Source of the DNA: an uncultured bacterium
Lineage (GTDB): Bacteria > Zhuqueibacterota > QNDG01 > DSAB01
DNA: 64,000 bases
Reading direction: 5' to 3'
NCBI GenBank assembly: GCA_964617625.1
Contig: CAZTZL010000007.1
Span: 1,278-65,277 of the forward strand
This document shows, in pieces, positions 8,311 through 29,814 of this stretch. Both the position numbers and the translations under genes were made by a program. Below the pieces are notes generated by a model that did not search any database, was not told where the DNA came from, and was given only the letters and a program-made list of their open reading frames with translations. Within the stretch, counting starts at the first letter, position 1; each line of letters begins with the position of its first letter.

Positions 8311-9223
8311 TTATTGGGTCTGGTCCGGCGGAATGGTGCAGTATCTCTCCTGGTTTGAAGAAGTGCCCGTCCCGAATCCTTTCCTGAGACAATATTCATG
8401 GCCCGAATTTATGGTGTTCAACGCCCGGTTCTATTCCCGTCAGGAAGCCAACTCGGCTTATCGCAAATACATTAAAAAACTGATCGCCCGTGTGAATACG
8501 GTTACTGGAATCAAATATCGGGATGATCCAGTGATCATGTCCTGGCAGCTGGCCAATGAACCACGTCCCGCTCCCGGAGGGTCGGGAAATAAAAATGATA
8601 CAGTCTTTGTACAATGGATCAGGGAAACTGCGGACTATATCCGTTCGATCGATTCGAACTATTTAATATCCACAGGAAACGAAGGTACGATGGGATGCCT
8701 CGGTTCCGTGAAAGTTTATCTGGATATCCATCGTCTGAAAAACATTGATTACATGGCCGTACATTTGTGGATTTTAAATTGGCAGCGGTTCGATCCATTG
8801 CATCCAGAGAAATCATATCCAGAGGCAGAGAAAAAAGCCGTCAATGATCTCAATCAGCACATCCGTTTTGCAGAAGAAGTCGGCAAACCTCTCGCTCTTG
8901 AGGAGTTTGGTATTTCCTGGGATTTACATTCGTTTTCGCCGGATTCCGGAACAATTTATCGAAATCGCTATTATAATACCGTGTTCGATTTGATTTACAG
9001 GAATGTAAAAGCCGGGGGACCTTTTATCGGAAGTAATTTTTGGACGTGGGGAGGGATTGGCAAAGCGAGGGATCCCGATGGAGCAGTATGGCGCAGAGGA
9101 GATGAATTCACAGGAGATCCTCCGCAAGAACCGCAGGGACGGAATTCGGTTTTTGCGACCGATTCGTTGACGATCGAAGTTATTAAAACGTACAGTGCAT
9201 TAATGAATGGTCTTTGCCAATAA
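8309..9223 (+). pseudogene. GH5 beta-mannanase lacking its N-terminus
   Basis: YWVWSGGM.QY, WQLANEPR (acid/base) and LEEFG (nucleophile) are present; signal peptide, first barrel strands and RBS are absent. Confidence 0.78.
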
Positions 9224-9341
9224 TGGCTTTGATTAGAACAGCGGATGTTTGAAAATATAAATAGAGTATAAATATTTTTATTGGAATATTGTCTCTTTTC
9301 CAATATATTATTACAGCAATTAAACATAGAAAGGGAAACCC

Positions 9342-10493
9342 ATGAAACGTTCACAAAACAATTTCATTTTATGGTCTATGGTTCTGATGGTTTGTTTACT
9401 GTTTATTCAATGTCAAAATAAGGAGATGTCCGGTATGAAAATTGAGAAGAAAGATTTTGGGAAGACTAAAGACGGTGTTTCTGCCGATTTGTATTCGTTG
9501 ACCAATGCAAATGGGATGGAAGTCGATATCACAAATTATGGCGGTATCATCACATCCATCATCGTTCCTGACAAGGATGGCAATATGGGTGATGTCGCGC
9601 TGGGATTCGACAATCTTGATGATTATATGAAAAAGAGTCCCTACTTCGGCTGTATTGTCGGCCGGTACGGCAACCGGATTGCAAAAGGAAAATTTACGCT
9701 CAATGGTAAAACATATACACTTGCTGTTAATGACGGCCCCAATCATCTTCATGGCGGTATTGTCGGCTTTGACAAGGTCATCTGGGATGCCAAGGAAGTC
9801 CGCGGTGGGGATTATGTCGGTTTGAAACTTTCCTATCTCAGCAAGGACGGGGAAGAGGGTTATCCTGGAAATTTATCAGTCACAGTCACCTATCTGTTGA
9901 CCAATGACAATGAAATTAAAATCCAATATGAAGCCACCACCGATCAGCCTACTGTTTGCAACCTGACCAACCACACCTACTTTAACCTTGCCGATGGAGG
10001 CGCTTCTTCGATACTTGACCACGAGCTTATGATCGATGCGGATTCCATTACAGCAATCGATGAAACATCCATTCCCACTCAATTAATGCCAGTGGCAGGC
10101 ACGCCTTTCGATTTCAGGAAACCCAAAAAGATCGGTTTGGATATTAATAACGATGATCCACAAATAAAGAACGGTCAGGGATATGACCATAATTTCGTTC
10201 TCAATGGTAAATCGGGTACGCTTCGCCTTGCGGCCAGAGCTGTCGATCCTTCCACAGGACGCGTTCTCGAGGTCCTGACAGAAGAGCCCGGCATTCAGCT
10301 TTATACGGGTAATTTTCTGGATGGATCAATCACAGGAAAAGAGGGAAAAGTATATAAGTACAGAAACGGATTTTGTCTGGAAACACAGCACTATCCGGAT
10401 TCTCCAAATCAGCCGGACTTTCCGTCTACTGTGCTGAATCCGGGCGAGAAATATCAAACCACAACTATTTATAAATTTTCAGTAGAAAAATAA
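9342..10493 (+). CDS. galM: Aldose 1-epimerase (mutarotase), lipoprotein-type signal
   Basis: GRYGNRIA.G.F, NHLHGG, NLTNHTYFNL, GYDHNF, FCLETQHYPDSPN; LLFIQC lipobox-like. Confidence 0.93.
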   Translation: MKRSQNNFILWSMVLMVCLLFIQCQNKEMSGMKIEKKDFGKTKDGVSADLYSLTNANGMEVDITNYGGIITSIIVPDKDGNMGDVALGFDNLDDYMKKSPYFGCIVGRYGNRIAKGKFTLNGKTYTLAVNDGPNHLHGGIVGFDKVIWDAKEVRGGDYVGLKLSYLSKDGEEGYPGNLSVTVTYLLTNDNEIKIQYEATTDQPTVCNLTNHTYFNLADGGASSILDHELMIDADSITAIDETSIPTQLMPVAGTPFDFRKPKKIGLDINNDDPQIKNGQGYDHNFVLNGKSGTLRLAARAVDPSTGRVLEVLTEEPGIQLYTGNFLDGSITGKEGKVYKYRNGFCLETQHYPDSPNQPDFPSTVLNPGEKYQTTTIYKFSVEK

Positions 10494-10775
10494 TATTTAT
10501 TTCCAATCTTTCAGCAATATCGGAGAAGTCATGAGTGTGTGGTATTAGCGTATAAATTTTTCTTTTTATGATAGGGCTTGTTCCGGAAAATTGGAATGGG
10601 CCCTTATCATTTCTGACGAAACCATAACTTTGTTTTACGTTATAATTCTGCATTTTTTTTAGGAATACTAATATGAAAATTAAAATTCAGTCATATTTGT
10701 GTTTTTGATTGTAATAACAGAATTCATATTGTATATTTCAATGAAAATTATTTCAATAACTGTCCATTCCCAAAT

Positions 10776-11177
10776 ATGAAATCAGTAACAGGAAACGTGC
10801 CCAAGAAAAAAATATTATACATTGATCAGTCTCCCGAATCGATTGAATTGGCTCGGCGTATTCTGGAACATGGAGGTATCCGTTGTCAGCTTTTAGCAGC
10901 CATTGAGGCACAGGAAGGAATGAAGATCGCTGTGCAGGAAGTTCCCGATTTAATTCTGTTGGACATGCATTTCCCCGCCGGCAAAACATGGAAATTGATC
11001 GAGCAAATCCGTACGATTGAAAATCTCAAAGGGATTCCTGTCATTGGCGTTAGCTCAATGGATTACGAAGGGGAATTGCAAAAGGATGTGTCGAGCGGAT
11101 CTCAGCCGGATATGTATTTACAAAAACCTTTCGATATGGATATGCTGATTGACGCAGTTAAAAACTTTTTAAATTAG
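10776..11177 (+). CDS. Single-domain response regulator
   Basis: ILYIDQ, PDLILLDM (phospho-Asp), YLQKPF. Confidence 0.82.
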   Translation: MKSVTGNVPKKKILYIDQSPESIELARRILEHGGIRCQLLAAIEAQEGMKIAVQEVPDLILLDMHFPAGKTWKLIEQIRTIENLKGIPVIGVSSMDYEGELQKDVSSGSQPDMYLQKPFDMDMLIDAVKNFLN

Positions 11178-11206
11178 TCGATAGCAATTGACATGAATTC
11201 CCCCAA

Positions 11207-11248
11207 TAAAAAACACCCATATTTATAGTCTTTAATGGGTGTTTTTAT
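11207..11248. terminator. Bidirectional terminator between convergent receiver genes
   Basis: AAAAACACCCAT...ATGGGTGTTTTT inverted repeat. Confidence 0.65.
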
Positions 11249-11414
11249 CATATCAAAATTCTATATAATGTAAAAATATATGATCCCTTAAATAAAAATA
11301 TCGTCATATTAAAACATAAAGCAATCCTTCGCCCGGGATACGTTCCGCTGTCATTGTACCCCTTTCGATTAAATAGAATAATTTAAAATCCCGTCAATTT
11401 CTGACTCGCCACGG

Positions 11415-11789
11415 TCAGTTCACCTGACATTCCATTGCCCTGTTGATTTTGGACAATAGCTCTTCTGTCTGGAATGGTTTTGCCACAAAATCGGTTGCGC
11501 CCATTTCCATGACTTTTTCCTGCACTTCTTTACCAGGATAGGCTGTGATGAATATCACCGGAATGTTTTCTGTTCTCGTGTACATTTTCAGACTGTTGAA
11601 TGCGCTCAGACCGCCGATGGTTGGCATGCGAATGTCCATCAAAATCAGGTCCGGCTGTTCTGAATAGGCCTTTTTAATGGCCTGATTGCAATCCTGGGCA
11701 GTTACCACCAGCAAGTTGTTGGAGCGAAGTCTCGATGCCAAAAGTGTGAGAATATCGGGATCATCATCTGCAATCAAAATCTTTTTCAT
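11415..11789 (-). CDS. Single-domain response regulator
   Basis: ILIADDD, PDLILMDIRMP, FITA, FVAKPF. Confidence 0.9.
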   Translation of the reverse strand: MKKILIADDDPDILTLLASRLRSNNLLVVTAQDCNQAIKKAYSEQPDLILMDIRMPTIGGLSAFNSLKMYTRTENIPVIFITAYPGKEVQEKVMEMGATDFVAKPFQTEELLSKINRAMECQVN

Positions 11790-11838
11790 TATTTTCCTCC
11801 TGTTTCCGTGGTTTATTTGCCTTTTCGATTCATACCCC

Positions 11839-13635
11839 TTAGATCAGATAGTAGATCATTTTACGTAAAAGTTCTTCATCGACCGGTTTACTGATTGTTA
11901 AGATAGCCTTCTTGTTGATGTATTCATGGAATCTTCCTGTTTCCACTTCATATCCGGACATGATGACAATGGGAATGTCCTTGGTTTCAAAATTTTCTTT
12001 CAACCGGCCGATTACTTCATAACCGCTCATTCCGGGCATCTTCATGTCAAGGATGATCAATTCCGGTAATTTTCGCTGAATGCTTTCGAAAGCGCCCTCG
12101 CCGGTGTTCGCAATATCGATGTTCTTGTATCCAAAGAATTCGATTAATATTTTTGTCGCTTCGGTCAACTCGATTTCATCATCCACAATCAGAATTTTCT
12201 TGTTCAGTCTTTCGGCTTTTTCATTGAGAATGTGATTTCGACAATTGTCCAGCAACGCTTCTGCAATTTGACCGTCTTTTGGGAATGTGCTCATTCCGTA
12301 TGAAAAATCCAGTTCAAAGTCCGAAGCTGATTCTACAAAGGATTCCTTGATCATTCGGATCAGATGTTTGTTTAATTTGGTGATCTCTTTGAGCGGTTTC
12401 TCGATCAGCATGATTAATTCATTTGTTTCCTGCATGAAAGGCGCAATATGTTTTTCCTGCTCTTCAATCATCTGAATCATTTTTTCTTGTGATTCAATAA
12501 TCTTGTCCTGTCCTATTTTTTTTCGTATATCAGAATAGTTGTGAATATGATAATACAATAAGACAAATGCCTGGTTGGAGCTGGATATTCTTCTTTTAAT
12601 TTTTTCCAGCAATTCAATCCCGGGTTTGTATTTCGGAATAATAAAACCGAATGAACTTCCTTTATTGATTTTACTTTTTGCGAAAATCTCTCCGTCGTGT
12701 AATTGAACAATTTCCTTTGCAATGGAAAGCCCAAGACCTGAGCCGTTTTGCTCTAACTGAATTCCTGTGTAAAATTGCTCGAATTTGTCAAAAACTTTTG
12801 GGATGTTATCATCGGAGATTCCGATGCCGGTATCAGAAACGATACATTCCACGTGTTCATTTTCACACTGTGTTTTGATTTCAATCAAACCTTTTTCTGT
12901 AAATTTGACGGCGTTCCCGATTAAATTATTGATTACTTGAATGATCCGATCTCTGTCTACATAGACTTCCATTGATTTTTCCGGAAGGATTGTTTTAAGT
13001 TCCAGTCCCTTTTTCTTGACCAAAGGAATGAACGGATCCACTGCCAATTTGATGACATCAAGTAAATTATCTTTTCTTTTTTCAAGTCTGACTTTTCCAG
13101 CTTCGATTTTTGAGATATCGAGAAGATCATCCACCATACGTCTGAGGCGATCCGTATTTCTTATGCATAGAGACAAGAATTTTTTCTGGTCTTCATTCAC
13201 GTTCCCTGTAATGCCGTCGTGCACCTGGGCCACGGATTCCCGAATAATCGTCAGTGGAGTACGCAGTTCGTGAGAAACATTTCTGATAAATTCATCTTTT
13301 AGCTGATCAATCAGGATTTGTTGTGTAATATCTCGAATAGATACCAAAAAGGCTCTTTCGCCTTCCCATTCGATATCGACTGTACGAAGCCTCCCGACAC
13401 CCGTTTTACCATTTTCTCGCGTAATGCAAATTTCGTAAGTTTCCTCTTCTTCCAACGTATAGATAAACCGGTCTCCGGGAACAGTCGCATGATTGCTGTT
13501 GCCCAAAATCAAGGATGCTGCGGAATTCATGTACTTTATAACGCGATTTTTGTCGACCACCAGAATGCCCTCATCGCTTTTTTCGATAATGGCTTGAAGA
13601 CACTTTAAATCGATGTCTGAATCTGTTGTTATCAT
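11839..13635 (-). CDS. Hybrid histidine kinase: PAS-HisKA-HATPase-degenerate GGDEF-like-REC
   Basis: SHELRTPL H-box, NLIGNAVKFT, DTGIGI, GSGLGLSI; insert ending FSYGMSTFPKDG; C-terminal LIILDMKMP receiver. Confidence 0.88.
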   Translation of the reverse strand: MITTDSDIDLKCLQAIIEKSDEGILVVDKNRVIKYMNSAASLILGNSNHATVPGDRFIYTLEEEETYEICITRENGKTGVGRLRTVDIEWEGERAFLVSIRDITQQILIDQLKDEFIRNVSHELRTPLTIIRESVAQVHDGITGNVNEDQKKFLSLCIRNTDRLRRMVDDLLDISKIEAGKVRLEKRKDNLLDVIKLAVDPFIPLVKKKGLELKTILPEKSMEVYVDRDRIIQVINNLIGNAVKFTEKGLIEIKTQCENEHVECIVSDTGIGISDDNIPKVFDKFEQFYTGIQLEQNGSGLGLSIAKEIVQLHDGEIFAKSKINKGSSFGFIIPKYKPGIELLEKIKRRISSSNQAFVLLYYHIHNYSDIRKKIGQDKIIESQEKMIQMIEEQEKHIAPFMQETNELIMLIEKPLKEITKLNKHLIRMIKESFVESASDFELDFSYGMSTFPKDGQIAEALLDNCRNHILNEKAERLNKKILIVDDEIELTEATKILIEFFGYKNIDIANTGEGAFESIQRKLPELIILDMKMPGMSGYEVIGRLKENFETKDIPIVIMSGYEVETGRFHEYINKKAILTISKPVDEELLRKMIYYLI

Positions 13636-13754
13636 TTTGAAAGATTGTCCCTTCTGGATAGGAAAAATCTACCGATAGTATTCACTTATCTCAGGATAAA
13701 ATAGACTTTTTCCAATATCAATGTCGAGCTATTTTAAGAATCCACAATTAATGC

Positions 13755-13771
13755 TGCATCTATAATGCCAG
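13755..13771 (-). promoter_or_regulatory. Sigma54 (-24/-12) promoter upstream of the hybrid kinase
   Basis: Minus strand CTGGCAT-TATAG-ATGCA (GG-N10-GC), 120 bp before ATG 13635. Confidence 0.65.
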
Positions 13772-13831
13772 AATATTGCAGAAGATCAGTTTATGTTATC
13801 ATGAGATTTATACAGGAAAAAGGAGATCGAA

Positions 13832-15598
13832 TTAATCGGATATTGGCAACTGGATGCTTGCTGTGGTTCCTTCTCCCAATCGACTGGTGTATTTCAAATC
13901 GCCATTGTGGGATTTCACAATTCCATAACAGACGGAGAGACCCAGGCCTGTGCCGTGTTCTTTTGTTGTAAAAAATGGATCAAAGATTTGTTGCATATCG
14001 CTTTCAGAAATTCCATCTCCTGTATCGGTAAAGTCAATTTGAATGTCATCGCCTTTATGTTTTGTGACCACAGTGATAGTACCCCCATCCGTTATTGCCT
14101 CAAATGCATTTCTGAGGAGGTTCATGAACACCTCCTGCATTTGTTTTTCATCTATTTCTACAGTGGGGAGAGGAGAAGTGAATTCCTTCAATATCTTGAC
14201 ATTTTTTTGCTTAAATTGCGGTTCTACCAGGTTAATCACAAAATCGACGGAATTATTGATATTGACTTTCATATAATCCCTTTTACTCGGTTTTGAAAAC
14301 ATGAGCAGCCGTTTCACGATATCATTGATCTGATCACATTGTTTCTTGATAATCGTTAAATCTTTTTCCAGGTCTTTGTTGTCAGGTTTCCGCATGAGTG
14401 AAATGCTGCTTCTTGTGGATATAACGGCGATTTGATTTTTTACTTCATGCGCCATATCTGCGGCCAGTTTCCCTAGCTGGGTCAACCGCTGGGATTCCTC
14501 GATTTTCTTACGTTCCGTGATGTCCCGGAAAACGCCCCGAATTCCCTGAAATTGTCCTTCGTTGTTAAATATGGCTACGGCTTTCATCTCACCAAAGATT
14601 TTCTTCCGTGTTTTTGTTTCCCAAAAAAGTTGATGGATATTTTCTCCGGCTTCCATCAGTTCCTGACGCCTTGTTTTAGACTCTTCGAGATTGTCTTTAT
14701 CCAGAATTTCAGAGAAAGGCATTCCCATCATTTCCTCTTTTGTGTACCCAAGCGTATTGGCCATGGCATTGTTAATATAGGTAAATTGCCCGTCGGCATT
14801 GGTGATATACATCAAATCGCTTGCGGTTTCCATGAAAGTGCGGAATTTTTCTTCGGAATCCCGAAGGGATTTTTCCATCCGTTTTCGTTCCGTGATATTA
14901 CTGACGATGCTTTGCATGATTCCCTTTTTAAGATCCACGATGCTCGAACTGATCTCCACGTCGATTGCAGAGCCGTCCATTTTCTTGAATTTCGATTCGA
15001 AACGTATCGATCCGGTTTTTACATTGGTTCTGAATGCTGCTTTGGAGCGGATCAATTCCTCTTCCGTTTGAAGATCATGAAAGGGAATCTTGATGAGTTT
15101 TTCTTTTGAATAGCCTAACATGTCACAGGCTTTTTTGTTAATGTCAAGAATTGTTCCGTCAAAATCGTAAATAAAGACAGCGTCATTTGAATATTCAAAG
15201 AGCCGCCGAAAGTAATCTTCCTGATTTTTCAGTGTTTTTTCAGCTTCCTGATAGTCCGAACTGATTTGATTGAGATCGTAAATCTCATTGGTTGCTTTTT
15301 GTAAATCAGAGACAAGATTATTTAAGGATTTACAGAGTTCTCCGATTTCATCTTTTGAATCTGATTCAATTCTGTAATCGAGATTACCGGATCGAACAAT
15401 TTCGATGCTTTTATTCATGTTTTGTATCGGTTTATACACCATTCTCGATGAAATAAAACCAATCAATGCTGTAAAAAGCATAATGATAGAATAGACTGCG
15501 ATGTGCGGTATCCCGATGTTTGTCAGGTAAAACGTAATACCGATGACGGCTATCGCTGTGAAAAAAAATATTAAAATGATTTTAACTATCAGTTTCAT
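13832..15598 (-). CDS. Membrane sensor histidine kinase (2TM-HAMP-PAS-PAS-HisKA-HATPase)
   Basis: HAMP SKDEIGEL, two PAS domains, AHEVKN H-box, NLLRNA, DTGDGI, FFTTK, GTGLGLS; start at 15598 coupled (TGA-A-ATG) to the HD-GYP stop. Confidence 0.88.
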   Translation of the reverse strand: MKLIVKIILIFFFTAIAVIGITFYLTNIGIPHIAVYSIIMLFTALIGFISSRMVYKPIQNMNKSIEIVRSGNLDYRIESDSKDEIGELCKSLNNLVSDLQKATNEIYDLNQISSDYQEAEKTLKNQEDYFRRLFEYSNDAVFIYDFDGTILDINKKACDMLGYSKEKLIKIPFHDLQTEEELIRSKAAFRTNVKTGSIRFESKFKKMDGSAIDVEISSSIVDLKKGIMQSIVSNITERKRMEKSLRDSEEKFRTFMETASDLMYITNADGQFTYINNAMANTLGYTKEEMMGMPFSEILDKDNLEESKTRRQELMEAGENIHQLFWETKTRKKIFGEMKAVAIFNNEGQFQGIRGVFRDITERKKIEESQRLTQLGKLAADMAHEVKNQIAVISTRSSISLMRKPDNKDLEKDLTIIKKQCDQINDIVKRLLMFSKPSKRDYMKVNINNSVDFVINLVEPQFKQKNVKILKEFTSPLPTVEIDEKQMQEVFMNLLRNAFEAITDGGTITVVTKHKGDDIQIDFTDTGDGISESDMQQIFDPFFTTKEHGTGLGLSVCYGIVKSHNGDLKYTSRLGEGTTASIQLPISD

Positions 15599-15599
15599 T

Positions 15600-17024
15600 T
15601 CAACGGTATTTCTCCGGAATATTAAATTTTTCCAGAGGAGGAATGGATTTGACAATTGATTTTTTAAATTGCCCTTTTTTATTCTTTTCCATCAAATTCA
15701 TAATGCGAGGTTCGTCATACTTTTCACCGAATTTGTTATAGAGGATTTCCACTTGGGGACGTTTGATGTCGAACATACTGGCTTGAATTACAAGTGCAAT
15801 TTCCTGGGTGTCCAGTTCTACCAGTGTTCCCGGCGGATAAAGTCCGATGATACTGAAAAAATTCTTCAGCAGATCCGGATGAAAATGTTTCCCGGAGAGT
15901 TTCATCATTTCTTCATGTGCCCTTTCAGGACCTCCTTCTTCATAGTAAAACGGTTTTCGTCTCAACTGGTCGTAGTAATCGGAAATCGCTATCATCATGC
16001 TGATGAGGTTTAATTTTTTCCCATACAGTTTTCTAGGATATCCAGTCATATCGTATCGCATGCCATGTTCAAAAGCCGTAATGGCAGGGAGTACGCCGAT
16101 GCCTTCTGTTTCCAAAAGAATCTTTGCGCCTGTAACGTCCTCATCTGCTCTTTTACGTTCTTTTTCATCCGTGAAATAGGCTTCCCATGAAGATTCTTCC
16201 CCTTCTTCTTTACTGCCTTCCGGATCAGCAATTCTACCGATATCGTGTAGAATGGCAGCCATACCGATATCGCTCAGATATTTTTGTTCCAGTCCCAACA
16301 TTTCAGCCTGTAAAAGTGTAAATATTGAAACATTGATGCCGTGTTGAAATACATCTTCATCATGACCGCGCATGGATGTCAGTAAAAGGAGAAGATATTT
16401 ATTTTTCAAGAGATTGGTCATTAATCCTTCAACGATCTGTCTGGCAGAATCCACATTGAGCCGCTGGTTGCCCTTCAGATTTTTAAAGGTTTTTGTTAAA
16501 AATTTAACACTTCCCTTATAATTTTTTTTAACCAAATCATCGATACGATCTTGGGTTATTGGAAGGCTCGATTTCTTTTCCATCAGACCAATCTCTCCGA
16601 TGGCGATATGACGGATGTTGGAATCGTAAAAACGTTGTTTGATTTCTTGTTTTATATCGGCAGTTTTAGGCCTTTTTGTAATAATATTCACAAATTCCAT
16701 GAGCTCGTTTTTTTGAACACCATTCATAAAACTTATTTTCTTGATGCCAAGCGTTTTCAAATGATCGATAAAATTCTGTCTTCTTGAACTTGTTTCAAAG
16801 AGAGGCTCTTTTTCGAATGCGATTTCGTCGCCAATAATACCGATTGTGATTTCTGGTCTATCCATCAAAATATCATTCAAATTGTCACTGAGATGATCAA
16901 TAGCACTCGTTGTGAGTGCATGGTCTTCGCCGTACATGCTCCTTATCTGTATTCCCCTGGCAATATGAGCAATCAATTCATCGATTTTTTCTCTGATTCC
17001 TGATTGTGGCATGAATGACCTCAT
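15600..17024 (-). CDS. HD-GYP domain protein with uncharacterised N-terminal domain
   Basis: QHGINVS, AAILHDIGR, EHGMRYDMTGYP, ISDYYD, PPGTLVEL. Confidence 0.85.
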   Translation of the reverse strand: MRSFMPQSGIREKIDELIAHIARGIQIRSMYGEDHALTTSAIDHLSDNLNDILMDRPEITIGIIGDEIAFEKEPLFETSSRRQNFIDHLKTLGIKKISFMNGVQKNELMEFVNIITKRPKTADIKQEIKQRFYDSNIRHIAIGEIGLMEKKSSLPITQDRIDDLVKKNYKGSVKFLTKTFKNLKGNQRLNVDSARQIVEGLMTNLLKNKYLLLLLTSMRGHDEDVFQHGINVSIFTLLQAEMLGLEQKYLSDIGMAAILHDIGRIADPEGSKEEGEESSWEAYFTDEKERKRADEDVTGAKILLETEGIGVLPAITAFEHGMRYDMTGYPRKLYGKKLNLISMMIAISDYYDQLRRKPFYYEEGGPERAHEEMMKLSGKHFHPDLLKNFFSIIGLYPPGTLVELDTQEIALVIQASMFDIKRPQVEILYNKFGEKYDEPRIMNLMEKNKKGQFKKSIVKSIPPLEKFNIPEKYR

Positions 17025-19273
17025 CTTGTTTGTAATTTCATATTTTCGTTCAGCTTGATGATGATTTCGACTCTCTCTTTAACCCGTTTGCTCTTGTCAT
17101 GAAATCCGCTCCGCACCAGTTCAGTGGCTTCATCAATTTGAAGGCGTGAGAGACTGGTTACTGTGGCTACGCGCAGGTCGTCTCGCCTTTTTGAATTAAA
17201 AAGCGCCTTCTTCTGATATATCTTTTTTAAATGGAGCAACGACTCCTGGGCTCTTACATGTCCGCAAAGTTCAACGAGTTGAATGAGAAACTTGTGGTGA
17301 AAAATATTTCTACTGGTGTAGTCAAACAATTTTTTAATGATCTCGGGATTCTTTGTTTTTAATAACAGAGAAGCGGCTTTTTTCTTGACTTCTTTATTTT
17401 TTTCTTTTTTAAAGATTTTGAATACGTCTGTTCTCTCAATTTCTGTGCCTGGTTCAAATTTTTCCAGGGCCACCCATCGGACCTGGGCGTTTTTATGACT
17501 CATAAGTTTTTTTGTAACCAGGTGGGCCTTTTCCGGTGCGGACTCTTTCAGGATGTTGAGTAAATCCCTTACCACGACTGGTTCACAATATTCAAGACGA
17601 TCGACAACTTCGGTGGCTATTTTTTCTCTCATTTGGAGAAAAATGTATCTGAATTTATTGCGATGAGCAGGATTTTTATTGACTATGTAAGCATCCACAA
17701 GTGATTTAGCTGATTCGTACTCGGATTTGAGAAGAATGTAGGTAATGTTATCCAAATCCATTTTACTGGCTTCAGGAATCAAGGCGATAATGCTGTCTAC
17801 AGTTTCCTTGCTGGTGATTTTCTCTATACCTTCTTTAATCTCCGAGATGATTTTATTATTTTTTCGCTGTTCAGGGCGAGTTTTTTCAGTATAGAATTCA
17901 ACAATTTCTTTGATTCTTTCAGTATCCTTTGAATCCAGCAGTTCCGGAAGAATGCTGACCACCTTATCTGTAAATTTTTTAAAATCTTCTGGTTTGTTTT
18001 CGAGCCATAAAATGTTTAGGAGGAGCCATAGTTTCTCTTTTTTAAGTTCTTCGTCTTCCATGGACTGAACGAATTTATTGATTAGAGGTGTGAGCCTGGC
18101 CACGTAAACAAGTGTATCCACTTTTTTATTGATAACCGCATCTACAGTGATGTTGTAAATCTGTTTCATGAAGTTGCTGTCGGGATGTTTCTTGAAAATT
18201 TCCATGATTGACATTTGGAGTTTGGAGAGAGTTTCCGGATTGACTATTCTTTTACTGAACAATTTATCAGCAACCATCATGACCATGTTGTCTGATTTAC
18301 TTGAATCAGGCGCAAGCTTATCGAACACCTTGAGGAGATTTTCGTTAAAAGTATCTTCATTGCTGATCAGTGACTCGATAAATTCTGCGATATAGCTTTC
18401 CGAGAAATCCTTGGTGATGGCTTCTGCAAGGTCGAATTCCTGATCTGTATCAACGGTTTGTTCGAACAGAATATTGATTAAATCCGGATGGAGCTGTGCA
18501 ATCACATTCATTAATTTTACTTTAAGGTCTTTTACATTGTCTGAGGAATATTGGTCAAAATATTCACAGATTTTTGTGATGGTACTTCGTATGTCTTTAA
18601 CAGTATTTTCGTCCTGAAGATGATTTACTGCTTCTCTGTACACTTTGTTCAGGGTTGAAGCCGATTTCTTTTCATCTGCAAAGAAATCTACAAGGAATTC
18701 CATTTTGGAGTTGGGAAGTTTGCCAGTTTTGGATTCTTCTACGATATCAAATAAAAACTTCCATATTTTTTCCTCTTCCGAAACAACTTTTTGGCTGGCT
18801 CTTTCCAAAAGGGAACTGTAATCGAGTTCCTTGAGTCTTAAATGATTGCTATTGGATATATTTTTTAAAATACCGCCTTTTTCGCGGATGGTTTTCCGGT
18901 CTTGGCCAATAAAAGTAAAAAATGTTTTAAGTTCATCAATTTGGATTCCCTGCAGAATCGTCAGGGAGCTTAATCCCCGCGTGTGTAAATAATTTGCGAC
19001 TTCACTGTAACAATCGTCCTTATTGTCTATCAATTTCCCGTCAATATAGAGCTGATCCTGAGAAAAGCCCAGGTTGAATTGATTTTTCAAACCAAACCAT
19101 TTGTCCAGTGAAGTTTTAAAATTGTTTATCGAATAAACATTAATAGGATGATCAGATGCGTAGAAAACACTGTTTTTCAATGTGATACGCAAATTTCGTA
19201 TAATGGGATCAAACAGTTTGATATTTAGTTCGGTTTTTTCCAATATATTTCTCCTGCTTGAATCAAATAACAT
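17021..19273 (-). CDS. Large helical HEAT-repeat protein
   Basis: 750 aa; C-terminal HEAT-like units (KNAQVRWVAL, KNKEVKKKAA, DDLRVATVTSL, KSKRVKE); 4-bp overlap with the HD-GYP gene. Confidence 0.72.
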   Translation of the reverse strand: MLFDSSRRNILEKTELNIKLFDPIIRNLRITLKNSVFYASDHPINVYSINNFKTSLDKWFGLKNQFNLGFSQDQLYIDGKLIDNKDDCYSEVANYLHTRGLSSLTILQGIQIDELKTFFTFIGQDRKTIREKGGILKNISNSNHLRLKELDYSSLLERASQKVVSEEEKIWKFLFDIVEESKTGKLPNSKMEFLVDFFADEKKSASTLNKVYREAVNHLQDENTVKDIRSTITKICEYFDQYSSDNVKDLKVKLMNVIAQLHPDLINILFEQTVDTDQEFDLAEAITKDFSESYIAEFIESLISNEDTFNENLLKVFDKLAPDSSKSDNMVMMVADKLFSKRIVNPETLSKLQMSIMEIFKKHPDSNFMKQIYNITVDAVINKKVDTLVYVARLTPLINKFVQSMEDEELKKEKLWLLLNILWLENKPEDFKKFTDKVVSILPELLDSKDTERIKEIVEFYTEKTRPEQRKNNKIISEIKEGIEKITSKETVDSIIALIPEASKMDLDNITYILLKSEYESAKSLVDAYIVNKNPAHRNKFRYIFLQMREKIATEVVDRLEYCEPVVVRDLLNILKESAPEKAHLVTKKLMSHKNAQVRWVALEKFEPGTEIERTDVFKIFKKEKNKEVKKKAASLLLKTKNPEIIKKLFDYTSRNIFHHKFLIQLVELCGHVRAQESLLHLKKIYQKKALFNSKRRDDLRVATVTSLSRLQIDEATELVRSGFHDKSKRVKERVEIIIKLNENMKLQTR

Positions 19274-19320
19274 TCAATTTGGTATTGCACTACTGGTTAA
19301 TGTCCTGATTTAATTTAAAT

Positions 19321-19338
19321 TAGCATATTTCATGCCAG
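19321..19338 (-). promoter_or_regulatory. Sigma54 (-24/-12) promoter of the HEAT/HD-GYP/kinase operon
   Basis: Minus strand CTGGCAT-GAAAT-ATGCT (GG-N10-GC), about 48 bp before ATG 19273. Confidence 0.68.
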
Positions 19339-19540
19339 AATATATTTATTTTGAATATTTTGTCAAAGTTATGAATATCTGTTCACAAATCAAAGATAGA
19401 TCGGCATTTCTTTCCTTTCTAAGCATATGATAAAACAATAAATATGATACTTGATTTTATGTATTTCAGTTTTTAAATTAAATTAATTATAAACTGGTTT
19501 CTGCCATATATAATGTTATCACTATTTTTAAATTTTAATT

Positions 19541-21850: not shown

Positions 21851-24800
21851 ATGAATCGAATCAGTAAAAAACAGAAGGAACATTTATCTCAATATGAAAA
21901 TCGTGTTCAATTTGATAAAACAGAACGGATATTGTATAGTCATGATATTGCTGCCATCCCCAATCTTGTTAAACCGCTTATTGGAAATACGATTCCTGAT
22001 GCAGTTGTACAACCTCAAAATGAGATAGAATTAGCTGAAATTGTCAAATGGGCCTATCAGGAAGGTATTCCGATTACACCACGGGCCAAATCTTCTTCCG
22101 GGTACGGAGGAACCATTCCGCTCAAAAAAGGATTGGTCATTGATTTTTACCGGATGAAAAAAATTATTTCAATCAGCAGAGAAAAATTGACAGTTACGGT
22201 CGAAGCCGGTATGACATGGGAAAAACTTGATGAGAAATTGAAAAAAGAAGGACTTACACTCCGGTTGTATCCAACGAGTTATCCTTCATCAACAGCCGGA
22301 GGCTGGTTGGCACAGGGAGGGGCCGGTATAGGCAGTTATCAATTTGGATACTATGCCGAGAATGTAACTTCAGCCCGGGTTGTTCTGTCTACGGGAGAGG
22401 TTCGTGAATTTACGGGTGATGACCTGCAGCTGATATCGGAAGCCGAAGGGGTCACAGGATTTATCAGTCAGGTCACTCTGAAGGTGCAATCTCTTGAAGA
22501 ATTGGATATTATAGCACTGGGATGTCCGGACGCTCACGATCTTCAGAAACTGGTTCAATCGATTGTGACAGCGGATCTGCCAATATGGGCCATGTTGTTT
22601 ATCAATCCCCGCATGGCAGAAATGAAAAACCGTGCACCGCTGCTTGAACATTATGGCCATCCTGTTGAGGAGAGAGTGATTCTGCCTGCGGCATATGTGG
22701 TTACTCTGGCTTTTCGGAAATCCGATAGTAAAAAGGTCCGATCTGATTTAAAAGAATTGATCAAACCCTGCCAGGGCGAAGTATTGAGTGACCGCATCGC
22801 ACAGCATGAATGGGAAAACCGGTTCAAGCTAATGATAGTAAAGCGGTTGGGACCCTCATTGGTACCTTCTGAAGTAATTGTCCCTCTTTCTTCTCTTGGT
22901 AATGTTATGGAAGAGATTGAACGAAAAGTCAATCAACCAGTCGTCAAGGAGGGTGTCATTATCAAGAGTGGTCCAAATGGAAAACCGGAAGTTGTTATTC
23001 TGGGCTTCATTCCAGCGGATCAGAGAAAGTTAAGTTATAATTTTGTATTTGGTCTTGTGATCACAATTATGAAAATTGCAAAACGGTACGGTGGACGCCC
23101 TTATTCAACAGGTATGTATTTCGCCAAAAAAGCAAAATCTATTTTAGGGAAAGAACGTGTCAAGAGGCTGCGTAAATTTAAAAAACAAGTGGATCCCTAC
23201 GGGCTTCTCAATCCAGGTAAAGTGTTGAACAATGGTTTGCTTGGATCATTAATGACTTTCGCTGGCATATTTGAACCGTTCATCCGGCCTTTTGGAAATT
23301 ATGTCATTACTAAAGTGGGGGAGCGGCCGAATAAACCGATTCGTGGAATTCCCGCGGATGTTGCCTGGTATGCCTATTCATGTTCGCAGTGCGGATATTG
23401 CATCGATGAATGTGATCAATTTTATGGACGTGGTTGGGAAAGCCAGAGCCCCCGGGGCAAATGGTACTGGCTCAGGGAATTCATGGAAGGCCGGGTCGAC
23501 TGGAATCAGAAAATGGTCGATACGATTCTTGTTTGTACGACCTGTGAGCTCTGTAATTTAAGATGTTCTGCGGCACTTCCCATAGAGCCTTCCTGGATGA
23601 AGTTGAGGGGGCAGCTCATTGATGAAAAGAAGAAAATGACGTTCCCTCCTTTTGAAATGATGGCAGCTGCGGTACGCGCCGAGGGTAATATCTGGGCCGG
23701 GTATCGCCGAAATCGTTCGAAATGGTTTCCTGAAGATTTGAAGGAGAAGCACGGCTCTCATCATAAGGCCAAGAATGTTTATTTTGCCGGATGTACAGCG
23801 AGTTATGTGGAAAATGATATCGGCATGGCGTCTGTCCGTCTTCTTGATGAAGCCGGTGTGGATTTTACCTATCTGGGAGAAAGGGAGAACTGCTGCGCAA
23901 CACCGATGCTGGTTGCCGGTAAATGGGAAGTATTTAAAGAAACCATGAATAAAAATATACAGGCAGTAAAAGAATCCGGCGCAGATACGGTTATCAGTTC
24001 CTGTCCGGCATGTGATATGATGTGGCGCCATATTTATCCTCAGTGGGCCGAAAAATGGGGAATGGATTATAATATTAAAGCGAAACACTACAGTGAAGTC
24101 CTGTCTGAAAAAATCCGAAGCGGTGAATTTAAATTCCCGAATAATAAAATGAGACAAACCACGGTTACCTGGCACGACTCCTGTCACATCGGCCGAGTAT
24201 CGGGTGTCTATGAGGAACCCAGGGAATTGATTCAGGCCATACCCAATGTGAATTTTGTGGAAATGGCCCACAACCGGGAGAATGGACATTGCTGCGGTTC
24301 TGTATTGACACTGATTAAGGAACCGCCTGTTGCAGCAGAAATCGGGAAAGAACGGCTGGATGAAGCCATTAATATCGGCGCTGAGAAGGTTCTTGCTCTT
24401 TGTCCGTGCTGTGAATTTCAGCTGCGTGTCACAACGGATAAAAAGAAAATGCCGCTGGAAGTGGTGGATCTGGCCCGATTTGCATCTTCCGCCCTGGGAT
24501 ACGATTTTCCGGATCCCAATCCGGAAGTGAAAAAACAATGGGCCGTTTTTGAGGGGATGATTGCGCTGATGACACCGCAAGGATTTGCCGATCTCATGGG
24601 GACCATGTGGCCGGAAATGATTGACGCGATGCCGTTGGGAATGGGAGGAATGATGCGGTTGATGGGAAAGATTCCGGGTGCACTGAATATCATGAAACCC
24701 ATGTTCCCTATACTGTTCCCCAAATTGCTGCCGCTGATGATGCCGAAGATTATGCCGACCATGCTGAAACGTGTAAGTGACAGGATTCCCATGCCCGATT

Positions 24801-24928
24801 ATATGGCTGAACAGATGCCTGAGCTAATGCCGAAAGTTATGGACAATCTCATGCCGCATATGATAGGAGATGTCGTACCTCTGGTAACACAGCCAATGAT
24901 AGATTATTTGCAAGACAAATCAACTTAA
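21851..24928 (+). CDS. FAD-binding / 4Fe-4S / CCG fused oxidoreductase (GlcD+GlcF-like, possible D-lactate/glycolate dehydrogenase) with Met/Pro-rich tail
   Basis: PDAVVQP FAD-binding domain, LNPGKV oxidase C-terminus, CSQCGYCIDEC and CTTCELCNLRC, FAGC/CC/CPAC and HDSCH/CCG/CPCC. Confidence 0.85.
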   Translation: MNRISKKQKEHLSQYENRVQFDKTERILYSHDIAAIPNLVKPLIGNTIPDAVVQPQNEIELAEIVKWAYQEGIPITPRAKSSSGYGGTIPLKKGLVIDFYRMKKIISISREKLTVTVEAGMTWEKLDEKLKKEGLTLRLYPTSYPSSTAGGWLAQGGAGIGSYQFGYYAENVTSARVVLSTGEVREFTGDDLQLISEAEGVTGFISQVTLKVQSLEELDIIALGCPDAHDLQKLVQSIVTADLPIWAMLFINPRMAEMKNRAPLLEHYGHPVEERVILPAAYVVTLAFRKSDSKKVRSDLKELIKPCQGEVLSDRIAQHEWENRFKLMIVKRLGPSLVPSEVIVPLSSLGNVMEEIERKVNQPVVKEGVIIKSGPNGKPEVVILGFIPADQRKLSYNFVFGLVITIMKIAKRYGGRPYSTGMYFAKKAKSILGKERVKRLRKFKKQVDPYGLLNPGKVLNNGLLGSLMTFAGIFEPFIRPFGNYVITKVGERPNKPIRGIPADVAWYAYSCSQCGYCIDECDQFYGRGWESQSPRGKWYWLREFMEGRVDWNQKMVDTILVCTTCELCNLRCSAALPIEPSWMKLRGQLIDEKKKMTFPPFEMMAAAVRAEGNIWAGYRRNRSKWFPEDLKEKHGSHHKAKNVYFAGCTASYVENDIGMASVRLLDEAGVDFTYLGERENCCATPMLVAGKWEVFKETMNKNIQAVKESGADTVISSCPACDMMWRHIYPQWAEKWGMDYNIKAKHYSEVLSEKIRSGEFKFPNNKMRQTTVTWHDSCHIGRVSGVYEEPRELIQAIPNVNFVEMAHNRENGHCCGSVLTLIKEPPVAAEIGKERLDEAINIGAEKVLALCPCCEFQLRVTTDKKKMPLEVVDLARFASSALGYDFPDPNPEVKKQWAVFEGMIALMTPQGFADLMGTMWPEMIDAMPLGMGGMMRLMGKIPGALNIMKPMFPILFPKLLPLMMPKIMPTMLKRVSDRIPMPDYMAEQMPELMPKVMDNLMPHMIGDVVPLVTQPMIDYLQDKST

Positions 24929-25101
24929 ATATCGAAACATTTTCTCTTCCCTTCCTCAATTAAAGGCAGGTGTAAGTTTCTGATTTTCTGCATCTGCCTT
25001 TCATCTTTTTTAAAAGGATAGGGAGAAAATGAGTTGTAATTATGATTGCAATTTATTATCTTTAGTCCATCATTTTTCTTAAAACTTGTGACAAGGCATA
25101 T

Positions 25102-26454
25102 ATGGGGCTGATTCAAATAAAAAAAGGGCTTGATCTGCCCATCAGTGGTGAACCGGTACAGATTGTTCATCCTGGGAAACCAGTGAAAAAAGTTGCCGTA
25201 CTCGGAGACGATTATGTCAATATGAAACCCCAGTTTGCAGTCTCTATAGGAGATGAAGTAAAAAAGGGTCAGCTCCTTTTCGTTGACAGAAAAAGGCCCA
25301 AAATCCGATTTACCTCTCCGGGCAGCGGGAAAGTCACGGAGATTAACCGCGGAGCCAAAAGAAAATTTCTCTCCATTGTGATCGAACTGAACGGGAAAGA
25401 TGCCGTGTCATTCGAATCGTATTCCGGCAGTCAAATACAAAAATTGAACCGGGATGAAGCCATATCCCAGCTGCTTGAGTCAGGATTATGGACGACAATC
25501 CGGTCACGGCCTTTTGGATATGTTGCCGATCCGGAATCAGTCCCCCATTCGATATTTATCACTGCAATGGATACCCAGCCTCTGTCTCCTTCTGTCGAAA
25601 AAATATTGAAAGGACAGGAAGAATCATTCAGAGCGGGCCTGCAGATCCTTTCGAAACTGACCGGGGGAACCCTTTTTCTCTGTCAAGAAAAAGGGGCCGA
25701 TATCCCCGTTGCTGATATGGACCGATTATCCATGGAAGAATTTACAGGACCGCACCCTGCAGGCAATGCAGGGACGCATATTCATTTTCTGGATCCCGTG
25801 CACCGCCATAAAAAGGTCTGGGTTGTTCATGCCGAAGATGTTTCCGCAATCGGAAAGCTATTTATTACAGGAAAGTATGATGTCGAACGGATCATTTCAC
25901 TGGCAGGCCCGGAGGTAAAAATTCCCCGTTTGGTTAAAACCAGGATAGGGGCCTCTTTGGATGATGTCACTGCAGGAGAATGCAAGGCCGGTAATAGACG
26001 CATCATCTCCGGATCCGTATTCCATGGTCATATTGCAGAAGGACCCACCGCTTATCTTGGAAGGTACCATCATCAGGTTTCGGTTTTACCTGAAGACAGT
26101 TCCCGTTCCTTTTTTGGCTGGCTGGATCCGGGTTTGCATTTATTCTCCGTCAAAAACATTGTTGCCTCGCGATTACTCCCAAGAAAAAAGATTGATATGA
26201 CAACCGCTGTCAACGGAGGCAAGCGTTCCATTGTTCCGGTCGGCAGTTATGAAAAGGTAATGCCTCTCGATATTTTACCTGCCTATTTACTGCGTGCACT
26301 GGCCGCGGAAGATATCGATGAAGCGGAAAACTTGGGTTGTCTTGAGCTGGAAGAAGAAGATCTGGCTCTGTGCACATTTGTGTGCCCATCAAAGATCAAT
26401 CATGGTGAGAATTTGAGACGAATGTTGACCCTTATAGAAAAGGAAGAACAGTGA
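25102..26454 (+). CDS. nqrA: Na+-translocating NADH:quinone reductase subunit A
   Basis: [45 protein letters not shown]. Confidence 0.95.
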
Positions 26455-27653
26455 AATTTCTGCGGCGTTTTCTTGACCGGCAAGAGAAACATTTCCGTAC
26501 AGGCGGAAGACTGAGCGGTTTGTACTATCTCTATGAAGCGCTGGACGGCTTCCTTTTTACCAAAGGGGAAAAGACCCCGAATCCCGTGCATGTTCGTGAC
26601 GCCATGGATCTGAAACGGATGATGATTACCGTGGTCTGGGCCCTGGTCCCGGCTGTGCTTATGGCACTCTATAATACGGGCCTGCAGGCCAACCTGGTTC
26701 TCTCAGAACTGCATCAAATTCCGCCCGGCAGCTGGCAGCGTACTGTCATCGCCTGGCTTGGAATCGGTTTTGATCCGCATAACATTCTCGCCAATTTTAT
26801 TCACGGTGCGTTGTATTTTTTCCCTGTTTATATTATTACACTGGCGGTGGGAGGATTTTGGGAAGTGCTTTTTGCCTGTGTGCGGAAACATGAAATTAAT
26901 GAAGGATTTTTGGTTACCAGTCTGCTCTTTCCGATGATTCTGCCTCCCACCATTCCATACTGGCAGGTGGCTCTCGGTATTTCTTTCGGTGTTGTTATCG
27001 GCAAGGAGGTATTCGGCGGTGTCGGTATGAACATTCTAAATCCAGCGCTGACCGGTCGTGTTTTCCTTTTTTTCGCTTATCCCGCTGCCATTTCAGGTGA
27101 AAAGGTATGGGTGGCTGTGGATGGCATCAGCCGGGCCACACCTCTGGCCAGGCTTGCTGAGTCCGCAGGACCTCTCACAACATCCTGGATGGATGCTTTT
27201 CTGGGATTCATTCCGGGTTCGATGGGAGAGACCTCTACACTGGCCTGTCTGATCGGCGCCATTGTTCTAATCATCACCGGGATTGCTTCTTGGAGAATCA
27301 TGCTCAGCATACTTGCAGGCATGGTCAGCCTTTCGTTCCTTTTTAACATAATCGGCAGTACGACCAATCCAATGTTCCAACTCACACCGTTGTGGCATCT
27401 TGTCTTGGGTGGATTTGCATTCGGGACTGTTTTCATGGCCACGGATCCGGTCACAGCGGCCATGACAAAAAAAGGAATGATATTCTACGGCTTGCTGGTC
27501 GGATTTTTAGTGGTACTGATCCGGGTTGTTAACCCGGCATTCCCGGAGGGAATGATGCTGGCAATTTTATTCGGAAATGTATTCTCTCCCATCATTGATC
27601 GTATTTTTATCAATGCAAATGTAAAAAGGAGACAGGCAAGATATGTCCAATGA
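26451..27653 (+). CDS. nqrB: NQR subunit B
   Basis: [44 protein letters not shown] (FMN-Thr), GSMGETS. Confidence 0.95.
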
Positions 27654-28437
27654 GGGTGCAAAGAAAACCATTGGTATTGCACTGGTGGTCTGTCTGATTT
27701 GTTCGATCCTTGTTGCGACGGCAGCTGTGGGTCTTCGAAAGATACAGAAGAAGAATCAGGATCAGGAAAAAATCAAGAATATACTTCTCGCCGGCGGTAT
27801 TGACTTTAAAAATAGAGATCTTCAAGAAGTATATCGTGAGAAAATAAGAACAGATTTGATTGAGCTTGCAAGTGGACGGATTCTCCCAGAGAGTGAATAC
27901 AAAGAAGATTTAAGACCGGAAACCTTTGATATAAAAAATACACCTTACACGCGGCGGATTGATCCTGACAAGGATATTGCCAAAATTCAATTTGTCCCTT
28001 TATATATGATTATTTATGAAGTGATCGAAAATGATCGAATGGATAGAATCATTTTGCCTATCTATGGGAAAGGACTCTGGTCGACAATGTACGGATTTAT
28101 TGCGTTGGACCGGGATTTAAAAACCATTAAAGGATTTACATTTTACCAGCACGGAGAAACACCAGGTCTGGGTGGAGAAGTGGACAATCCGCGGTGGAAA
28201 CGGATCTGGGTGGGCAAGCAGGCATTTGATAGTAACGGCCATGTCAGAATTCGTGTAATTAAAGGGAAAGTGGATCCTGATAGCCCGGATGCAAAGTACA
28301 AGATCGATGGACTCTCCGGTTCAACATTAACCACACGGGGTGTGGATCAAATGGTTCAATTCTGGCTGGGAGAAAACGGATACGGGCCATTCCTCAAACA
28401 ACTCAGGGAGCGACTGTCTATTGAGTCATCAAAATAA
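27643..28437 (+). CDS. nqrC: NQR subunit C
   Basis: [30 protein letters not shown] (FMN-Thr). Confidence 0.94.
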
Positions 28438-29801: not shown

Positions 29802-29814
29802 GAAAACCTGTTGC

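Follow-up and report, generated by a model that had tools for sequence, protein, structure and literature searches.

Introduction

Among the described HD-GYP proteins closest to the one studied here, PmGH, PA4781 and V-cGAP3 are active phosphodiesterases, and the alanine substitutions H250A and H277A abolish the activity of PmGH (PMC4159591). DvhD of Desulfovibrio vulgaris (9rbz/9rc0; PMC13090378), of dCache-PAS-HD-GYP architecture, is a non-catalytic receptor of cyclic di-GMP (c-di-GMP), and HnoD (HnoB–HnoK network, Shewanella) and ECA3548 are degenerate HD-GYP proteins acting by protein–protein interaction (census of Galperin & Chou). Here we describe a gene cluster from a 64-kb stretch of DNA of an uncultured bacterium (contig CAZTZL010000007.1; the whole stretch of 64,000 nucleotides is called the window below), in which a gene for an alpha-solenoid protein is followed by genes for a degenerate HD-GYP protein and a histidine kinase, HK1. 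Three further genes, for a hybrid kinase (HK2) and two single-domain receivers (REC1 and REC2), complete the neighbourhood (Table 1).

The HD-GYP protein of the window shares with PmGH, PA4781 and V-cGAP3 the HD and GYP motifs and the equivalents of H189, H276 and D305 (PmGH numbering), but it has Glu in place of H250, Gly in place of H277, an acidic insert instead of the KPG loop and a changed RxxK motif, and its N-terminal domain (N-dom) is not GAF, REC or DUF3391. With DvhD it has in common an HD-GYP fold deprived of metal ligands, a loss that in DvhD includes the double-His motif and leaves a protein working without hydrolysis. However, in DvhD one membrane-spanning polypeptide also carries dCache and PAS domains and governs a protease of the periplasm, whereas the window protein is cytoplasmic, combines N-dom and a beta-rich tail with solenoid and kinase partners, keeps the HD motif and differs in the contact residues. 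It resembles Bd1817 (DUF3391-HD-GYP with an inactive HD-G'Y'P, 3tm8; Foldseek template-modelling (TM) score of about 0.54, normalised to the target) in being cytoplasmic and in carrying a degenerate motif behind an uncharacterised N-terminal domain; in DUF3391, though, strands precede helices, while N-dom begins with helices and gives no Pfam match to DUF3391. As in HnoD and ECA3548, the degenerate HD-GYP domain would be a regulator and not an enzyme within a network of several kinases and receivers, but those two proteins carry REC or PilZ, and their descriptions mention neither a solenoid partner nor N-dom nor a sigma-54 promoter.

HK1 is like the NtrB, AtoS and ZraS kinases in its PAS domains and kinase core and in the sigma-54 promoters that precede the operon, but unlike them it is not accompanied by a neighbouring NtrC-type regulator in any of the loci L001-L036 and is co-transcribed with two proteins foreign to two-component systems. 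Myxococcus SgmT is reportedly a histidine kinase that also contains a receiver and, at its C-terminus, a GGDEF domain devoid of catalysis which binds c-di-GMP via an intact I-site. HK2 likewise unites kinase, receiver and non-catalytic GGDEF fold in one polypeptide, but here the fold is inserted between HATPase and REC and has no RxxD. Since all catalytic and receiver domains fall into known superfamilies, the cluster is of a known kind, namely two-component signalling with degenerate domains of the c-di-GMP type. Nevertheless, a literature search for a HEAT, HD-GYP and kinase system found none, and the strict solenoid/HD-GYP pairing, the shared N-dom and the disappearance of the active site across a whole clade together with the gain of a kinase are absent from the literature and domain libraries searched. 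This agrees with the first-pass annotation, made from the letters of the DNA, which could match the cluster to no characterised pathway.

Results

Conservation of the gene order

A scan of species-representative genomes yielded 31 loci at the species level, which were annotated by phmmer with the six window proteins. All genomes were metagenome-assembled genomes (MAGs), labelled Omnitrophota, KSB1, "bacterium" or "Planctomycetia". When loci whose contig continues past the gene were taken as informative, the HD-GYP gene directly followed the solenoid gene in all of them (28/28) and HK1 came next in 20 of the 24. The four loci without HK1 (L030, L031, L033 and L036), together with the metagenomic locus L004, constitute the most divergent clade (31–37% identity), and in this sister clade the solenoid/HD-GYP pair sits alone amid unrelated housekeeping genes. 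We conclude that this is a real, conserved signalling gene cluster of uncultivated bacteria related to the MAGs labelled KSB1 and Omnitrophota. Its ancient two-gene module is the pair of N-dom-solenoid and N-dom-HD-GYP genes, co-transcribed and tightly coupled with HK1 in this lineage.

The remaining genes behaved differently in the survey. HK2 and REC1 always occurred together and were confined to a KSB1-like subclade (seven genome loci) and the nearest relative (L037/L038); they are not core parts but belong to one subclade. A REC2 orthologue (180 bits) was found only in L037/L038, where the DNA beyond REC2 differs from that of the window, and REC2 was rejected as a core member. The first-pass annotation had regarded the six genes as one signalling system and had made that view dependent on the conservation of gene order; the order proved conserved, and the unity of the system was upheld for the solenoid, HD-GYP and HK1 genes but not for HK2 and REC1, limited to one subclade, or REC2, limited to the closest relative.

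Two loci deserve a separate remark. In L004, a gene for a HAMP-HD-GYP membrane protein (8545..10011) overlaps the start of the solenoid gene, taking the place of the membrane kinase, which lies downstream in the derived clade. In L027, from a long-read MAG, the solenoid gene (9971..12210) appears split into the overlapping open reading frames (ORFs) 9971..11620 and 11281..12210, either by a frameshift/pseudogene formation or by an assembly error.

Loss of catalytic residues in the HD-GYP protein

The HD-GYP fold was confirmed by Pfam HD_5 (38.8 bits vs. the cut-off of 27.2). The closest solved sequences were those of PmGH (4mcw, E = 2.7e-10), PA4781 (4r8z) and V-cGAP3 (5z7c), with E values from 2.7e-10 to 7e-4, and Foldseek, which gave probability 1.0 to 4mcw, 3tm8, 4r8z, 5z7c and 9rbz, added Bd1817 and DvhD as the nearest by fold. 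In the alignment to PmGH, the window protein has D224 at the position of E185, H228 for H189, H260-D261 for the HD dyad (H221/D222), R264 for K225, E295 at the position of H250, H320-G321 at H276-H277 and D349 for D305; GYP is intact. Of the features expected of a competent c-di-GMP phosphodiesterase, the HD dyad and H189 are present, while two of the three G-site ligands (H250 and H277, but not H276), the KPG loop and RxxK are missing.

These losses are not peculiar to the window. We compared the 22 sequences of the kinase-linked clade with the five of the kinase-less sister clade: H250 was retained in 0/22 vs. 5/5, H277 in 1/22 vs. 5/5 and the Tyr of GYP in 7/22 vs. 5/5. At other positions the kinase-linked clade was less degenerate (H189 in 21/22, H221 in 19/22, D222 in 18/22), with the HD motif itself altered in six orthologues. 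All along this clade a variable acidic insert replaces the KPG nucleotide loop and RxxK reads KPxY, whereas the sister clade keeps ‘ILRKxGxL...HPxxGA’ and ‘DALRSKRxY’. The loss of the active site thus coincides with the acquisition of HK1.

The protein is nevertheless well preserved. Mean pairwise identity amounts to 0.63 for the beta-rich C-terminal domain, 0.58 for the HD-GYP core and 0.40 for N-dom. The C-terminal domain, five strands in the AlphaFold2 (AF2) model and matched by no Pfam entry, is the best-conserved part and bears the invariant PPGTLV...RP..E..Y. The higher conservation of the core and the C-terminal domain than of N-dom indicates that the HD-GYP domain is maintained for a non-catalytic role. 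Judged by its residues, the HD-GYP protein of the window is most likely a non-catalytic subunit under strong purifying selection.

The first-pass annotation had proposed a hub in which phosphorelay meets the turnover of cyclic dinucleotides. In this version the HD-GYP protein would be an active phosphodiesterase scaffolded by the HEAT protein, coupling the phosphorelay to the turnover of c-di-GMP or cyclic GMP-AMP (cGAMP). Apart from the residues retained in the window, with acidic side chains at the E185 and H250 positions, the fully canonical sister clade speaks for it, as does P0311, a fusion of N-dom and HEAT repeats with an AGDEF cyclase domain (see below), which ties the family to c-di-GMP. 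However, the residues whose substitution kills PmGH are those that have disappeared from the clade, together with the KPG loop, RxxK, a constant GYP Tyr and, in the six orthologues, HD, and the GGDEF-like insert of HK2, degenerate in all eight orthologues, is predicted to be unable to supply c-di-GMP. We consider active turnover very unlikely, and this part of the first-pass annotation was not supported.

A degenerate HD-GYP domain may also act as a receptor, as in DvhD, binding a cyclic dinucleotide and signalling to HK1 via the solenoid protein. The precedent of DvhD, whose HD-GYP binds c-di-GMP independently of metal (PMC13090378), the Foldseek match to its c-di-GMP-bound structure 9rbz, the ancestry linked to c-di-GMP and a core strongly conserved despite the lost catalytic residues are all compatible with this. 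Against it, this clade has not conserved the c-di-GMP contacts of PmGH: another sequence stands in for the KPG loop, Tyr occupies position K317 and Y285 varies. On balance such a receptor seems unlikely.

A shared N-terminal domain

The N-termini of the solenoid and HD-GYP proteins are homologous, as seen in BLASTP between the two window proteins (E = 3e-5) and in the cross-hits between both families, reciprocal in many loci. An alignment of 12 + 14 sequences of the two families was nearly gap-free over about 140 residues, with only Tyr38 and His42 (Tyr-x3-His) invariant. Both AF2 models show the same alpha/beta topology, in which two long helices and a beta-hairpin are followed by alternating helix/strand elements; the predicted local distance difference test (pLDDT) value is about 80–92 over residues 20–150 of the solenoid protein, and the models and alignment place the invariant Tyr and His in the loop that joins helices one and two.

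N-dom matched nothing in Pfam, with the threshold relaxed to E ≤ 10, or in NCBIfam, and PDB sequences yielded no relative; the sole PDB match, to the designed beta/alpha protein Octarellin, was judged spurious. The HD-GYP census describes DUF3391 (four strands, then two helices), DUF3369 (GAF-like) and MASE domains but not N-dom, and identity with DUF3391 or DUF3369 was rejected because of the missing Pfam match and a topology different from their descriptions. A role of His42 as an Hpt-like phospho-acceptor was also judged unlikely, since its surroundings are not of the HxxKG type and P0311 lacks the His in its N-doms.

When 1.84 billion cluster representatives (50% identity clusters) were searched with a profile, 6,362 N-dom proteins passed E ≤ 1e-3 and 1,987 passed E ≤ 1e-10. 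In the sampled architectures, N-dom was joined to HEAT repeats, to HD-GYP, to PAS-HisKA-HATPase, or placed twice within GGDEF(AGDEF)-AAA_16-2xN-dom-HEAT; no informative source name was attached to the sampled divergent proteins. N-dom is thus a recurrent signalling module. The last architecture is that of P0311, a metagenomic protein of 1417 aa, where GGDEF(AGDEF) and an AAA_16 STAND-like ATPase precede the two N-dom copies and the HEAT repeats, and where the His of Y-x3-H is not kept. From its domain order, P0311 appears to be a Rosetta-stone link of the N-dom/solenoid proteins to c-di-GMP synthesis. Another protein, P0281 (1007 aa), is likewise a GGDEF(AGDEF)-AAA_16-N-dom fusion, although Pfam recognised only its GGDEF and AAA_16 parts.

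The variety of partners raised another explanation, that N-dom senses a small molecule or cofactor independently in each protein, so that the solenoid and HD-GYP proteins respond in parallel to one cue and form no complex. N-dom does head different outputs (HEAT, HD-GYP, PAS-kinase, GGDEF-STAND), it can occur without a solenoid partner, and a loop with invariant Tyr and His would suit a sensor. Strict adjacency in 28/28 loci and tight gene coupling are, on the contrary, typical of stoichiometric partners, and the loss of the His in P0311 also speaks against this explanation. We find the independent-sensor explanation quite unlikely.

Putative sigma-54 promoters

The elements P1 and P2 are the sole matches to TGGCAYN5WTGCW on both strands of the window, where 0.23 would be expected. 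Both are intergenic, correctly oriented and of the GG-N10-GC type; P2 sits in the 196-bp gap upstream of HK2. P1 recurs in L037 and, within the KSB1-like subclade, in 12 genome loci, lying 39–64 nt from the start codon in ten of these 12, 208 nt in L022 and 349 nt in L034. P2 recurs, likewise between HK1 and HK2, in L037, L008 and L001. Around P1 and P2 the flanking DNA of the orthologous loci is unalignable while the −24/−12 elements persist. The sigma-54 link proposed in the first-pass annotation was therefore strengthened by conservation in relatives, and P2 is an addition to it.

The window contains one gene for a sigma-54 activator, a GAF-AAA+(Sigma54_activat)-HTH_8 protein (44486..46048, minus strand), 25 kb away. 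Its presence implies that the organism uses sigma-54, and, as it lacks a receiver domain, it would not be a direct target of HK1 or HK2.

The promoters and the survey together bear on the possibility that chance alone placed six ordinary two-component genes without a common function side by side, that they are transcribed with sigma-70 and that the −24/−12 matches are likewise accidental. Such a view would account for the absence of HK2, REC1 and REC2 from most relatives, for the sigma-70-like hexamers beside P1 and for the lack of an activator near the cluster. For the solenoid–HD-GYP–HK1 triad it is largely refuted by the order conserved across 20 species-level genomes, and as regards the promoters it is at variance with two elements, the only ones in 64 kb, that are conserved unlike their flanks and unlike the sigma-70-like hexamers, which do not recur in the orthologous upstream regions. 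A chance assembly is extremely improbable.

The solenoid protein

About 99 full-length homologues of the solenoid protein (730–760 aa) were found, and every one originates from a MAG or a metagenome (Omnitrophota, KSB1, ‘bacterium’). They bear no functional names, although a few sources describe them as a HEAT repeat protein or a predicted transcriptional regulator. Pfam HEAT_2, recorded for many homologues, was below threshold in the window protein (17–19 bits vs. the cut-off of 27.7). The family profile, however, matches alphaRep/PBS-HEAT designs over residues 570–731 (E = 5e-11), and the AF2 model (overall pLDDT 77) contains a confident alpha-solenoid over residues 410–745, mostly at pLDDT of about 90; Foldseek with the full model gave only generic ARM/HEAT matches with a TM-score of about 0.2. 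The HEAT assignment thus holds at the level of the predicted fold, and the modelled solenoid makes up only the C-terminal ~45% of the protein.

The middle region (residues ~165–400; 17900..18780) includes some of the best-conserved stretches, e.g., LISxEDTFNENLLKVFDKLAP and LNILWLEN, and the invariant residues W171, N209, E311 and Q353. It was modelled by AF2 with low confidence, and no match to it was found. The constraint on this region is unusually strong for a mere scaffold.

Kinases and receivers

HK1 has two transmembrane helices joined by an outer loop of about seven residues and two cytoplasmic PAS domains, with no periplasmic sensor domain. Its PAS domains and kinase core score best with the NCBIfam models AtoS (293 bits) and ZraS (171 bits), all far below the equivalog cut-offs. 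The H-box, N, G1 and G2 motifs are conserved across 20 aligned sequences, and on these motifs HK1 is predicted to be catalytically intact.

HK2 carries the H-box VSHELRTPL (8/8 orthologues) and a canonical receiver. Its GGDEF-like insert scores 27 bits when scanned alone and has ETNEL at the motif position in the window; as neither GG(D/E)EF nor RxxD occurs in any of the eight orthologues, the insert is predicted to be incapable of making c-di-GMP. In L037 (8857..11091) and L008 (9568..11829), the HK2 orthologues are ~150 residues longer (744–754 aa); the extension in L037 is an extra N-terminal receiver domain absent from the window HK2. REC1 has the residues D9/D10, D52, T82 and K104, whereas REC2 has D-Q instead of the acidic pair and retains Asp, Ser and Lys. 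No Hpt domain is present.

Gene layout, junctions and flanks

The six genes lie within positions 10776-19338, five on the minus strand and one, convergent, on the plus strand (Table 1). The ORFs and the Pfam and NCBIfam scans agreed with the first-pass annotation as to the genes, their coordinates and their domain content, and the same scans revealed no DNA-binding domain in any of the six products, again as previously claimed. The two close junctions that it had reported are real: an ATGA overlap of 4 bp (17021-17024) joins the solenoid and HD-GYP genes, and TGA-A-ATG (15602-15596) joins the HD-GYP gene and HK1. An alternative start of the HD-GYP gene, ATG 17012 behind a GAGG Shine-Dalgarno sequence, is equally good or better and leaves an 8-nt spacer. 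The true start of the solenoid gene is likely TTG 19243, preceded by AGGAG; the database version of the protein is P0001.

Table 1. Coordinates of the genes, domains and promoter elements of the cluster in the window
Feature	Position	Strand	Location or basis
P1, sigma-54-type −24/−12 promoter, TGGCATGAAATATGCT	19322..19337	-	5' of the solenoid gene
Solenoid protein, 750 aa: N-dom, conserved helical middle, PBS-HEAT solenoid	17021..19273	-	
N-dom of the solenoid protein, residues ~13-151, invariant Y38 and H42	18821..19237	-	
C-terminal HEAT/ARM-like alpha-solenoid, residues ~410-745	17039..18046	-	AF2, Foldseek, alphaRep profile match
HD-GYP protein, 474 aa: N-dom, degenerate HD-GYP, beta-rich C-terminal domain	15600..17024	-	
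N-dom of the HD-GYP protein, residues ~8-146, paralogue of the solenoid-protein N-dom	16587..17003	-	
HD-GYP-fold core, residues ~206-392	15849..16409	-	Alignment to PmGH 4mcw, clade census
Beta-rich C-terminal domain of the HD-GYP protein, residues ~393-465	15630..15848	-	
HK1: two transmembrane helices-HAMP-PAS-PAS-HisKA-HATPase, NtrB/AtoS type	13832..15598	-	
P2, sigma-54-type −24/−12 promoter, TGGCATTATAGATGCA	13755..13770	-	Between HK1 and HK2
HK2, 598 aa: cytoplasmic PAS-HisKA-HATPase-(degenerate GGDEF-like)-REC hybrid kinase	11839..13635	-	
GGDEF-like insert of HK2, residues ~344-476	12208..12606	-	Pfam GGDEF, 23-27 bits
REC1, canonical single-domain receiver, 124 aa	11415..11789	-	
REC2, convergent single-domain receiver, 133 aa, D-Q for the acidic pair; membership doubtful	10776..11177	+	

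Between REC2 and REC1, at 11210..11245, lies a 10-bp inverted repeat (AAAACACCCA / TGGGTGTTTT, loop of 16 nt) with an A-run and a T-run at its sides, which may be a bidirectional terminator. It was outside the range of the simple hairpin scan, limited to loops up to 8 nt, and Rfam returned for it only a sub-threshold chance match (STnc310, E = 0.52). In the leaders and intergenic regions, no riboswitch or small RNA reached the threshold. A role in anti-phage defence was rejected, as PADLOC gave no match for the solenoid, HD-GYP and HK1 proteins, and for HK2 only generic kinase/receiver matches.

Within the window, the flanks of the cluster are unrelated to it, with sugar genes on one side and genes for GNAT, TPR, MarR, FAD-oxidase and Nqr proteins on the other. 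The latter side includes, in 21851..31050, a gene for a large FAD-oxidase/4Fe-4S/CCG fusion protein and then an NqrA homologue (25102..26454), likewise unrelated to the cluster; co-directional ORFs follow NqrA and may make up the rest of an operon for Nqr, the Na+-translocating NADH:quinone reductase.

Discussion

The strict pairing of the solenoid and HD-GYP genes and the coincidence of active-site loss with the arrival of HK1 raised the hypothesis of an accessory pair of solenoid protein and pseudo-phosphodiesterase acting on the histidine kinase, supplemented by a lineage-specific second branch of phosphorelay. We put this forward tentatively, as a reading with a reasonable but not yet even chance of being right in full. 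The solenoid and pseudo-HD-GYP proteins would associate, possibly via their paralogous N-doms, and the resulting pair would serve as an accessory input or adaptor setting the kinase/phosphatase state of HK1, whose own sensing would be limited to the two cytoplasmic PAS domains; both the complex and its control over HK1 are what we infer from the gene coupling and domain content. Phosphorylation would take over from c-di-GMP hydrolysis as the output of the module. Judged by the residues lost and kept, the system probably signals by phosphorylation and protein contacts, not by second-messenger breakdown.

The receiver of HK1 would lie outside the conserved operon. The simplest candidate would be an NtrC-type activator encoded elsewhere, since it would at the same time account for the conservation of the sigma-54 promoters, by autoregulation, and for the AtoS/ZraS-like core of the kinase. 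In the KSB1-like subclade, the second branch would consist of HK2 and REC1, a unit that in four loci has a sigma-54 promoter to itself. HK2 would most probably phosphorylate its own receiver and the CheY-like REC1, the latter acting by protein contact, and its degenerate GGDEF fold may be a spacer or an interaction domain.

Several observations weigh against the hypothesis of a kinase-controlling accessory pair. The window HD-GYP protein keeps HD, GYP and 6/8 ligand positions, and the Glu at the H250 position may still bind metal, so that some residual activity is conceivable. The N-dom-PAS-kinase P0296 has no solenoid neighbour, which suggests that N-dom may be a sensor and not a heterodimerisation domain. 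The −24/−12 element is absent from the Omnitrophota-type loci, and a sigma-70-like TTGACA-16-TATATT (19339..19366, minus strand; 11/12 match) abuts the −24 element of P1. Finally, no sigma-54 activator or NtrC-type regulator was found within ±10 kb of the cluster in loci L001-L036, and no convincing upstream activator motif was common to P1 and P2 or shared across loci.

A broader formulation, possible but rather doubtful at present, is that N-dom represents a new, widespread signalling domain and that the solenoid/HD-GYP pair is a two-protein module not described before, rewired from an active c-di-GMP phosphodiesterase, as in the sister clade, into a pseudo-enzyme that joins the solenoid in an accessory complex controlling a kinase.

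The interest of the cluster is moderated by the origin of all its parts in known superfamilies and by the inferential character of its function. It is a conserved, unannotated signalling module of candidate phyla without genetic systems, from MAGs labelled Omnitrophota and KSB1, and it has brought to light a domain missing from Pfam, NCBIfam and PDB yet attached to four output types. With the loss of HD-GYP metal ligands matching exactly the gain of the kinase gene, it offers a natural experiment on the evolution of pseudo-enzymes. It also calls for caution in metagenomic censuses, in which HD-GYP and GGDEF matches of this sort should not be counted as capacity for c-di-GMP turnover. Should the rewired pair with its new N-dom prove real, Omnitrophota, KSB1 and related bacteria would possess a sensor kinase system of a new, ‘three-component’ kind.

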